A stretch of DNA of 64,000 nt, from assembly GCA_016788565.1 (NCBI GenBank), contig JAEUSP010000101.1:3334-67333 (forward strand), written 5' to 3'. How positions within the stretch are numbered: position 1 is the first letter of the stretch; each line of letters begins with the position of its first letter. The notes beneath the pieces were generated by a model. The model was not told the origin of the DNA. It made no database searches and was given only the letters and a program-made list of their open reading frames with translations. Positions 23,720 to 23,989 of this stretch are shown piece after piece. The position numbers and the translations under genes are program-made. Source of the stretch: Chlorobiota bacterium (lineage in GTDB: Bacteria; Bacteroidota; Ignavibacteria; OLB7).

Positions 23720-23989
23720 TGAGTACCGGTCACAGCCAATAGGGTTCCCCTTGATGGCATAATCAGCCGGAATCTCGCTCTGCGTAAGCGGAGCAAAAGC
23801 CCCCCGGAGAGGCTAAGGTTCATGTCCAGAAATGGTGCAGGTGGGCCTCGATGAAGGGAGTCGGTGTTATGGGCAACCATAACAGGACTTAGGGAACTCT
23901 GTACTCTCAGAACGTTACGATGGGTTCGTACCGGCCAGAATCGCTCTTTGAAATGGACGGAATATGGCGATTGTAGAGCGATTTTAAGT
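23720..23989 (+). ncRNA. Putative omega-RNA/tracr-like scaffold and array leader
   Basis: Segments resembling IS605 right-end motifs (aagc..ccggagag; cctcgatgaagggag); GNRA-capped hairpins at 23777-23794 and 23865-23884; hairpin 23939-23983 just before repeat 1. Confidence 0.6.

Follow-up and report, generated by a model that had tools for sequence, protein, structure and literature searches.

In a 64,000-nt stretch of the genome of a Chlorobiota bacterium (assembly GCA_016788565.1, contig JAEUSP010000101.1, positions 3,334 to 67,333, forward strand; hereafter the window), a TnpB-family gene is followed by a non-coding interval and by a CRISPR array. All three lie on the + strand. The gene (22056..23708) is an open reading frame (ORF) for a 550-aa protein, P0001, the interval is a 281-nt gap that separates it from repeat 1 and extends up to 23989, and the array (23990..24616) consists of 11 repeats and 10 spacers. 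We tentatively favour the reading that this locus encodes a prophage-borne, nuclease-dead, TranC-like RNA-guided DNA binder with its guide-RNA scaffold in the interval. TranC are the transposon–CRISPR intermediates of Jin et al. (Cell 2025), as cited in the available texts of 10.64898/2026.03.27.714800, PMC13565253 and PMC13639567. A first-pass annotation of the interval, made from the sequence alone, had proposed a TnpB-to-Cas12 intermediate. The reading favoured here retains that proposal in a TranC-like form, although the idea itself is already published as the class TranC; the annotation was silent on the loss of two of the three RuvC residues and on the origin of the array from the host type I-E system.

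In the mechanism that we propose, the scaffold (about 23735-23902) and P0001 would form a complex like that of an omega-RNA with its TnpB, and an 18-nt anti-repeat would take the place of the fixed guide of an omega-RNA. The anti-repeat would pair with nt 4-21 of the repeat, the partner being repeat 1 (in cis) or a processed CRISPR RNA (crRNA; in trans), and a 7-nt linker, AUGAUGG, followed by the 33-nt spacer would leave the junction at the place and in the direction of the old guide. The array would have been captured from a host-like type I-E array; host Cas1-Cas2 may fill it and Cas6e may cut its transcript. With a His-His-Asp RuvC triad, the complex would bind matching DNA uncut and so obstruct rival mobile elements; spacers 7 and 9 would direct the same roadblock to genes for host surface proteins.

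An omega-RNA-like interval and its RNA cover

The motifs and hairpins that the first-pass annotation had listed are all present, each within two bases of where it had been placed. On the + strand, the interval carries agtaccgg (23722-23729), gccggaat (23766-23773) and hairpin A (23777-23794, gctctgc-gtaa-gcggagc), which has a GUAA loop and seven pairs, one of them G-U. These are followed by motif 1, ccccccggagagg (CCCCCCGGAGAGG; 23800-23812), and by motif 2, cctcgatgaagggagtc (CCUCGAUGAAGGGAGUC; 23846-23862), with the middle hairpin shut by a closing stem of GAGGC (23809-23813) and GCCUC (23843-23847). Behind motif 2 lies tgttatgg-gcaa-ccataaca (23865-23884), a GCAA-capped hairpin of eight perfect pairs that forms the core of hairpin C (23860-23888). 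The predicted fold adds an 11-bp long-range helix between 23739-23749 and 23892-23902, and from this fold, the starts of RNA-run contigs and the motif comparison described below we delimit an omega-RNA-like scaffold at 23735..23902. The anti-repeat (CUCUGUACUCUCAGAACG, 23897..23914, + strand) comes next, and a link (23915..23989) joins it to repeat 1; the link contains two hairpins, a small one (23916-23930) and one of 9 bp (23939-23947 with 23975-23983) that stops 6 nt short of repeat 1. The + strand of 23725-23989 folds at -95.3 kcal/mol, compared with -82.8 +/- 5.1 kcal/mol for shuffled sequences (z -2.47; 1 of 200 shuffles as good), and the fold signal of the - strand is weaker (z -1.81).

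For comparison, 48 viral TnpB loci were fetched by protein similarity to the P0001 clade. Behind several of the ordinary tnpB genes fetched in this way, true omega-RNAs consist of GCCUGUGGAGA, a short hairpin, UCGAUGAAGCAGGAA, a hairpin and a short tail. The omega-RNA motifs that the annotation had named are real, and their order, with one hairpin before, one between and one after, is the same there and here. The transposon end, taken as the point of divergence, lies ~45 nt after the start of motif 2 in loci L019 and L021 and ~60 nt after it in L030 and L036. The motif pair stands at the omega-RNA site in 7 of 49 protein-fetched TnpB loci, whereas the pair GGAGA, 10-40 nt, TCGATGAA has four occurrences on both strands of the 4.58-Mb genome (9.2 Mb), one of which is this one, and the motif pair is found once in the window. 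The scaffold has GGAGA and UCGAUGAA in the right order, with four of the five helix pairs possible and the hairpins in place; it lacks, however, the AGGAA of the omega-RNA core GCCUGUGGAGA ... UCNAUGAARYAGGAA, and most omega-RNAs have a shorter middle hairpin.

The two motifs are also linked by structure. RNAalifold on 24 omega-RNAs predicts a helix between CCUGU (motif 1) and GCAGG (motif 2). In an alignment of 54 omega-RNAs, which was fitted to the model and therefore favours the structure, 97.7% of the cells of this inter-motif helix are paired, both sides of all five pairs vary, and none of 500 shuffles attains the observed values. The corresponding columns here read CCCCC and GGGAG, so that four of the five pairs are possible, three of them through different bases. 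Moreover, in omega-RNA locus L007 the middle hairpin is shut by GAGG:CCUC, as it is by GAGGC:GCCUC in the present scaffold, and the 11-bp long-range helix may be the counterpart of a pairing between the loop of the first hairpin and the 3' tail seen by eye in canonical omega-RNAs. Descent of the scaffold from an omega-RNA appears likely. An alignment of five omega-RNAs by MAFFT was misaligned and dropped, and a second motif scan (GGAGAGG...CCTCGATGAA) returned mostly chance matches in coding sequence and served as a null set. On one of the viral contigs with an ordinary TnpB, a near-threshold Rfam CRISPR-DR7 match (L034:713-749; 35.6 bits, gathering threshold 37) lies ~2.3 kb upstream of tnpB.

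The locus is present in 20 public runs, six of them recorded as RNA, and Logan contigs from four of the latter, metatranscriptomes of one study each (X15, X17, X18 and X19), were placed on 20800-25400. The contigs over the interval and array are 4-40 times deeper than those over the gene in all four runs: the depth over the interval and first repeats against that in the ORF bins (22032-23725) is 21.4 vs 3.1-5.0 in X15, 217.6 vs 0-10.7 in X17, 75 vs 0-9 in X18 and 90.2 vs 0-7.5 in X19. ORF parts that have no cover in some of the runs are no evidence of silence. RNA-run contigs start at 23725, 23734, 23735 and 23777, adapter letters stand immediately before 23735 in X19, and one contig of X18 (23734-24255) spans the scaffold together with four repeats. 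The depth declines along the array, and contigs that end at 24017 do so because the assembly breaks at the repeat. Since the contigs running from 23725/23735 into the array are 4-40 times deeper than the gene contigs, the data suggest an abundant + strand RNA whose start lies ~20 nt past the stop codon, at about 23725-23735, and which is continuous with the array. A 4-40-fold change in depth from one stretch of a replicon to the next cannot be put down to DNA carry-over. On the contigs of these four studies, the interval appears to be more than a spacer between gene and array.

All four adapter remnants before fragments share one orientation with the remnants behind fragments, of which four of five are long enough to tell; fragments within the + strand gene are included. 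Read as Illumina adapters, and assuming the usual stranded libraries, they presumably mark + strand RNA. A scan for sigma-70 promoters found none upstream of 23735. The cover resembles the pattern described, in the available text of Hoffmann et al. (PMC13472631), for dCas12f loci, where the guide RNA is abundant and the gene lowly expressed.

A host-like array and a candidate anti-repeat

The repeat of the array (CTTCGTTCTGCGGGTGCGGGGATGATGG) has 28 nt, the spacers 33 nt and the period is 61; repeats 7 and 11 are short by 6 nt, repeat 8 has 1 extra nt, and the repeats at the far end are degenerate. The host has a type I-E system with two arrays (contigs C74 and C18), whose repeat is CTGTTCCCCGCATGTGCGGGGATGATCC and which likewise have 33-nt spacers and a period of 61. 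Its Cas1 and Cas6e are encoded on C74 and a Cas6e fragment on C1, and neither is found on C133; no cas genes stand beside the array of the window, those of the host sitting on another contig. The two repeats share a 13-nt block, GTGCGGGGATGAT, and differ in the first 12 nt and the last 2 nt. The repeat stem UUCUGC/GCGGGG is kept through G-U pairs in spite of three C-to-U changes relative to the host. Furthermore, the end of the link (...TTTTAAGT/CT) resembles the end of the host I-E leader (...TCTCAAGT/CT), AAGT/CT being common to both, and no spacer in this array or in the host arrays starts with A. The array thus has the features of a type I-E array (28-29-nt repeat, stem-loop, 32-33-nt spacers and repeat likeness) and no adjacent I-E cas operon. 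Because the repeat block, geometry, leader end and stem match those of the host, the sequence suggests that the array is a diverged copy, captured from a host-like type I-E array, and it possibly makes use of the host adaptation enzymes.

Two spacers match the host chromosome. Spacer 7 (24378..24410, + strand) matches the sense strand of host surface-protein genes, and spacer 9 (24501-24533, + strand) is a near copy of it with one difference. With blastn, their genome matches are 31/33 at C130:130128, 27/30 at C130:70245 and 29/33 at C46:22678 (first 18 nt perfect). The targets are three paralogous host genes for proteins of 1700-1800 aa, matched within their coding regions; the proteins have a probable type IX secretion system (T9SS) sorting tail (Por_Secre_tail, 26.5 and 23.3 bits, just below the 27-bit cut-off). 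Since the mismatches that were checked fall at third codon positions, the spacers probably derive from an allele or paralogue of a target gene. The protospacer of spacer 7 is preceded by AA, which fits a type I-E-like protospacer-adjacent motif; read as the flank of a TnpB-type target, it gives ...CCAA as a candidate TAM. Such self-matching spacers would be easier to tolerate if the effector does not cut. The remaining 8 of the 10 spacers have no match in the genome, and searches with all 10 gave nothing significant among phage records (one chance match at E 0.6) and nothing among plasmid records; conversely, none of the 39 host I-E spacers matches the contig of the window. The 3-kb locus including the array keeps 0.99 of its sampled words in 14 DNA or unlabelled runs from 8 studies, 12 of which are flagged as possible assembly sources, and the spacer set therefore looks fixed.

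Two further observations concern the arrays themselves. Within 24356-24533, spacers 7 and 9 are bordered by the 6-nt-short repeat 7 and the 1-nt-longer repeat 8, which points to an internal duplication in the array and not to two acquisitions. In the host array on C74 (29707-31330), spacer C74_8 matches C123 (twice) and C122 (33/33), C74_17 matches C1 (33/33), C74_20 matches C123 (28/28) and C74_23 matches C99 (31/33); the contigs matched by host I-E spacers either belong to mobile elements that were binned together with this genome or are self-targets.

The anti-repeat is complementary to nt 4-21 of the repeat. The first-pass annotation had found a perfect 7-mer, cagaacg (23908-23914, + strand); this 7-mer exists, but the complementarity extends over 18 nt, in which the 7 Watson-Crick pairs are followed by one mismatch and a further 10 pairs, including 4 G-U. 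The ungapped helix scores 35, against a null of 23.2 +/- 3.7, a score equalled by 16 of 1467 random 281-nt segments of the window. Co-folding with the repeat, which the annotation had proposed as a check, places the anti-repeat in a duplex with repeat 1 in both the minimum-energy and the centroid fold of 23725-24050, and with repeat 2 in a two-strand fold. The perfect 7-mer faces repeat bases in which this array and the host I-E arrays diverge. As the canonical distances (45-60 nt from motif 2) put the end of the scaffold near 23890-23907, the anti-repeat would lie at the guide position of an omega-RNA. In the geometry of the predicted duplex, moreover, the 3' side of the crRNA (AUGAUGG and the spacer) exits at the end near the scaffold, the direction of the old guide.

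The guide position can also be read in another way, which is unlikely but survives best among the alternatives: the interval would encode a self-contained guide RNA of the omega-RNA or TldR type, with a fixed guide from about 23903, and the array would be a separate I-E orphan used by Cascade or serving as a decoy. Orphan or mimic arrays carried by mobile elements are a known kind. In line with this explanation, the last hairpin and tail are intact, as in single-piece omega-RNAs, and the repeat has the geometry, the identical 13-nt block and the hairpin of the host I-E repeat, with host Cas6e and Cas1 available on C74; in addition, the published dCas12f and TldR use single guide RNAs without a tracrRNA (the trans-activating RNA of CRISPR systems), as far as the available text of PMC13472631 describes them. 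However, the 58 nt of 23888-23945 have no match in the genome beyond chance (best 14/15 at E 39), and the fixed guide that the annotation had allowed for is thus left with no target there. Moreover, what stands at the guide position is complementary to the repeat next to it, which itself differs from that of the host in the first 12 nt and the last 2 nt; the scaffold and array are covered together, one RNA-run contig spanning both; and spacers that match the chromosome would be dangerous in the presence of an active Cascade-Cas3.

The TnpB-family protein and the weight of the evidence

P0001 scores 171.4 bits with the NCBIfam model guided_TnpB (NF040570; cut-off 100), which places it in the TnpB family, and it contains the Pfam domains HTH_OrfB_IS605, OrfB_IS605 and Cas12f1-like_TNB. 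It falls outside the NCBIfam families Cas12f2 (35.9 bits, cut-off 450) and c2c8 (62.1 bits, cut-off 350), and phmmer at E up to 1 returned no Cas12m match. By sequence, its closest solved relatives are ISDra2 TnpB (E 8.5e-19) and an AI-designed TnpB-like nuclease. A profile of the wider clade matches ISDra2 TnpB (2.4e-84), ISFba1 TnpB (2.9e-73) and chain 9j09 (4.2e-56), followed by LaTranC (3.6e-32; 9jfo and 9jfq are reportedly its structures, by Jin and colleagues), Cas12f (near 1e-24) and Cas12m (2e-10). Chain 9j09 is named Cas12n in the available text of 10.64898/2026.03.27.714800. The AlphaFold model of P0001 (pLDDT 81.7) agrees with the sequence in that its top Foldseek matches are ISFba1 TnpB (E 6e-22) and ISDra2 TnpB (TM-score 0.80), the target-normalised TM-scores ranging from 0.77 to 0.80.

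When P0001 is aligned to ISDra2 TnpB and to 20 ordinary TnpBs, its RuvC triad consists of His329 (RuvC-I), His424 (RuvC-II) and Asp528 (RuvC-III) in place of Asp-Glu-Asp; all 20 ordinary TnpBs have Asp at RuvC-I and Glu at RuvC-II. The zinc finger (CxxC...CxC) is intact, and four insertions relative to ordinary TnpB occupy residues 47-110, 178-200, 243-283 and 435-456. His-His at RuvC-I and RuvC-II is found in all four full-length members of the clade, P0001 included, and the relatives, 59-83% identical to P0001 by BLAST, keep both His-His-Asp and the zinc finger; P0002 is 83%, P0003 78% and P0004 59% identical. The clade is rare: a collection of 5.8 billion proteins holds the four full-length sequences and a frameshifted fragment (P0005), and they form a single 50%-identity cluster among 1.84 billion representatives. 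The RuvC-I His is invariant in a 12-sequence alignment (A3) of a wider TnpB-like set; among the next-best representatives, judged by eye, it is present in 7 of 10, and the RuvC-II Glu in 10 of 10. Two substituted RuvC residues that are conserved in the clade suggest that P0001 is probably nuclease-dead, given that at least two mutated triad residues are taken as inactivating a TnpB in the available text of Wiegand et al. (10.1101/2023.11.30.569447) and that Cas12m2, with a His-Asp-Asp triad, is described as binding DNA and not cutting it (PMC10442227). Binding without cutting would be expected from His-His-Asp instead of Asp-Glu-Asp. As a separate observation, proteins of 380-520 aa in the wider clade (P0006, P0027-P0029, P0031, P0032, P0035 and P0036) have His at RuvC-I and keep Glu at RuvC-II. 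Their RuvC-I His echoes the His-first triads of Cas12m, though the clade is much nearer IS605 TnpB.

Searches for relatives of the whole locus were negative. Among viral contigs, neither the protein nor the repeat retrieved a related locus, and the clade alignment retrieved only ordinary TnpBs of 17-45% identity. Genome contigs searched by protein gave one match (27%), 400 other genomes of the phylum gave one ordinary TnpB (31%), and metagenome contigs searched by protein alignment and repeat gave none. In phage and plasmid records the protein matches were all below 60% identity, and the scaffold DNA had chance matches or none. Since no related locus emerged, there is no support from these searches for protein, scaffold and array travelling together.

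A number of results speak against the TranC-like reading. A covariance-model search, to which the annotation had looked for recognition of the scaffold, did not provide it. Rfam at E up to 10 on 21000-25500 returned chance matches only, a negative that is uninformative because Rfam has no model for true omega-RNAs of this class; on ten true TnpB loci it likewise gave nothing except one CRISPR-DR7 match. Covariance model R1, built from 24 viral omega-RNAs picked by motif, scored 6.9 bits (E 0.14, 301 nt searched alone) on the interval and had no match at E up to 10 window-wide, whereas with this model 21 of the 43 TnpB loci fetched by protein score 21-75 bits and true omega-RNAs reach 21-97 bits. 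Model R2, from 19 matches in 17 protein-fetched loci, had no match in the interval alone or in the window, and an nhmmer profile of the 54 omega-RNAs run against the genome did not place the interval among its 20 best. Among some 66 motif pairs that occur by chance in viral contigs, ~9, counted by eye, also allow at least four helix pairs. The scoring scheme for the anti-repeat is our own and its result moderately above chance, a free-energy duplex scan ranked the anti-repeat no better than five control regions, and pairing in trans with repeat 2 gains just -2.2 kcal/mol. The RNA cover derives from assembled contigs and not from reads, with one depth figure per contig and no silent control stretch, and contig ends and strand are hints only. 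Furthermore, the repeat keeps a hairpin and has the same 3' half as the host I-E repeat, so that host Cascade could be the user of the array. The loss of cleavage in P0001 is a prediction from its sequence, and His is present in some RuvC-type active sites. Finally, the link between protein, scaffold and array rests on one locus, their adjacency being seen here alone.

Another explanation takes the interval as no more than a long folded leader of a captured I-E array, its omega-RNA likeness arising by chance, and the TnpB-like gene as a decaying transposon remnant without an RNA partner. All covariance-model and profile searches being negative agrees with this, as do a leader end like that of the host and cover that runs unbroken from the interval into the array. 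We nevertheless hold this explanation to be improbable. The motif pair is rare, with 3 other copies in 9.2 Mb, and sits directly 3' of the gene for the only P0001 relative detected in the genome, P0001 itself, of which there is no second gene copy. Nor does the protein appear to be decaying, as it has an open 550-aa frame, relatives of 59-83% identity with the same His-His-Asp and zinc finger, and a confident model. A 255-nt leader covered as well as the first crRNAs would also be unusual among I-E leaders. Least probable, and contesting the loss of cleavage only, is an ordinary immune, phage-borne system of the TranC/Cas12f type in which His-His-Asp still cuts or a shifted acidic residue serves: the third Asp and the zinc finger are kept and one catalytic residue lies elsewhere in some TnpBs (Wiegand et al., 10.1101/2023.11.30.569447, in its available part), but here two positions are altered, both changes are conserved, spacers match the host chromosome, and His-first triads in Cas12m go with binding and no cutting (PMC10442227, likewise).

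Genomic setting and relation to known systems

The TnpB-family gene and array lie in the first part of the window, where the G+C content is 46-51.5% (1-36 kb), compared with 51.5-57.6% in the remainder and 55.5% in the genome; the step falls near 36 kb. This low-G+C part contains phage-family matches (phrog_562, RNA ligase, E 1.7e-52; phrog_1362, DUF932, 7e-50; phrog_644, 9e-34), weak tape-measure and tail matches and many ORFs with no family, whereas housekeeping genes appear from ~44 kb onward. The low-G+C stretch is probably a prophage-like island. No tRNA genes were found in the window. A Pfam scan of the two flanking ORFs (20400-21773 and 24748-25038) gave no match, and these ORFs hold no trace of the transposase by which an IS200/IS605 or IS607 element would be recognised. 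Just beyond the island, 37509-42938 encodes a protein of 1809 aa that bears a T9SS sorting tail (Por_Secre_tail, 30.9 bits); it was considered as a full-length paralogue of the spacer targets and rejected, the likeness being confined to the C-terminal sorting tail.

A second folded element lies 5' of the gene (21817..22012, + strand). It contains three type I-E-like repeat hairpins (GTTCC at 21840, 21902 and 21963) spaced 61-62 nt apart, whose stems differ yet are self-complementary, enclosed by a stem of ~20 bp. The element folds at -97 kcal/mol, compared with -58.9 +/- 4.4 kcal/mol for shuffles (z -8.68; 0 of 200 as good), and RNA run X19 has a contig of depth 60.8 over it (21797-22050). Possible identities are a decoy that imitates the host CRISPR repeats, the remains of a mini-array and a 5' leader with a regulatory role. 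The 10-mer CTTTGAAATG occurs at 21815-21824 and 23945-23954, flanking gene and scaffold 2130 nt apart; we estimate that 3 kb of sequence would contain such a pair by chance, and it was given no weight.

Of the known systems, TranC is like the present locus in having a TnpB-sized effector beside a CRISPR array with no cas1/cas2 adjoining and a candidate tracrRNA between effector and array; its guide RNA is thought, in the papers cited above and as far as their available texts go, to stem from a split omega-RNA or reRNA. Here, the TnpB-like gene adjoins the array at one locus, and the tracrRNA-like pairing is that predicted for the 18-nt anti-repeat, at about the 1% chance level. In contrast to the TranCs that those texts describe as tested, which cut DNA, the RuvC triad here is His-His-Asp, and in contrast to the repeats of 32-38 nt reported there for TranC clades, the present repeat has 28 nt and is I-E-derived. 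Moreover, the anti-repeat here comes after an apparently complete scaffold. P0001 is only weakly similar to LaTranC (E 1.2e-6 by phmmer, confined to the C-terminus), whose clade-profile value of 3.6e-32 stands against 2.4e-84 for ISDra2 TnpB.

With TldR, the TnpB-like but nuclease-dead repressors described in 10.1101/2023.11.30.569447, P0001 shares a TnpB-derived sequence, at least two mutated RuvC triad residues and no transposase beside it (here, in either of the flanking ORFs that were scanned). Further points in common are a strongly expressed non-coding RNA next to the gene, carriage by prophages in one clade and a surface-structure target, flagellin in the case of TldR (Wiegand et al. 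2024; 10.64898/2026.09.22.753285, in their available parts). TldRs, however, are described in these sources as having one fixed guide of 9-16 nt and often no C-terminal zinc finger, whereas the present locus has a 10-spacer array, an intact zinc finger, an enlarged protein and a match inside a coding region. A single guide directed to a promoter was not found, the only genome matches being those of spacers 7 and 9 inside coding regions.

The dCas12f cluster, including dCas12f-sigmaE (Hoffmann et al. 2026, PMC13472631), resembles the locus in that, according to the available text, its members are nuclease-dead mini type V proteins of the Bacteroidota sphere, some of them beside CRISPR arrays, with high guide RNA, low gene expression and a proposed regulatory role. 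The same text has these Cas12f relatives dead by C-terminal truncation, whereas P0001 is far nearer IS605-type TnpB; unlike in dCas12f-sigmaE, no sigma factor was seen in the Pfam scan of the two flanking ORFs. Cas12m (type V-M) shares the RuvC-I His in a non-canonical triad, and is described as binding without cutting and silencing mobile elements (PMC10442227, available part). Cas12m needs crRNA alone, however, and is distant from P0001 (profile E 2e-10, Foldseek TM-score 0.43-0.46); the two RuvC-I His residues are probably convergent.

IS605-type TnpB (ISDra2, ISFba1) remains the best match in sequence and fold, and the scaffold shares with its omega-RNAs the GGAGA ... UCGAUGAA core, the helix, the hairpins and the position behind the gene. 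It differs in that RuvC is mutated here, four insertions are present, the covariance models give no score, and no transposase or transposon ends were seen, the ends being unmapped; a repeat-complementary stretch and an array replace the flank-derived guide. The array, in turn, is like type I-E arrays in its 28-nt repeat, 33-nt spacers, period of 61, 13-nt block, retained hairpin and lack of A-initial spacers, and unlike them in the first 12 and last 2 nt of the repeat and in having no cas genes beside it.

In the literature we found neither a TnpB-type protein that has a mutated RuvC and adjoins a CRISPR array nor an I-E-derived array in the service of a TnpB relative, the supplements of the TranC, TldR and dCas12f papers lying outside this search; this does not prove that neither has been published. 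It is conceivable, though doubtful, that the locus represents an undescribed route in which a complete omega-RNA exchanged its guide for a repeat-pairing stretch and a phage-borne dead TnpB borrows host I-E acquisition, perhaps also processing, and silences rivals and giant surface proteins, as a class 1/class 2 hybrid or 'CRISPR-fed TldR'. If so, it would be a natural snapshot of a transposon nuclease becoming CRISPR-guided. If the TranC-like reading fails, what is left is a well-expressed folded leader beside a domesticated TnpB, which is ordinary. If it holds, the change of a guide into an anti-repeat could be tested on this locus as a model; the locus would also be a candidate case of cross-talk linking a TnpB-derived effector to a type I adaptation module, and P0001, at 550 aa, a compact natural DNA binder able to carry many guides. 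TranC split-guide intermediates, TldR and CRISPR-linked dCas12f are already known, and the locus would be a variant among them; under the TranC-like reading, TranC, TldR/dCas12f and host-mimicking arrays on mobile elements would meet in one 2.8-kb locus.

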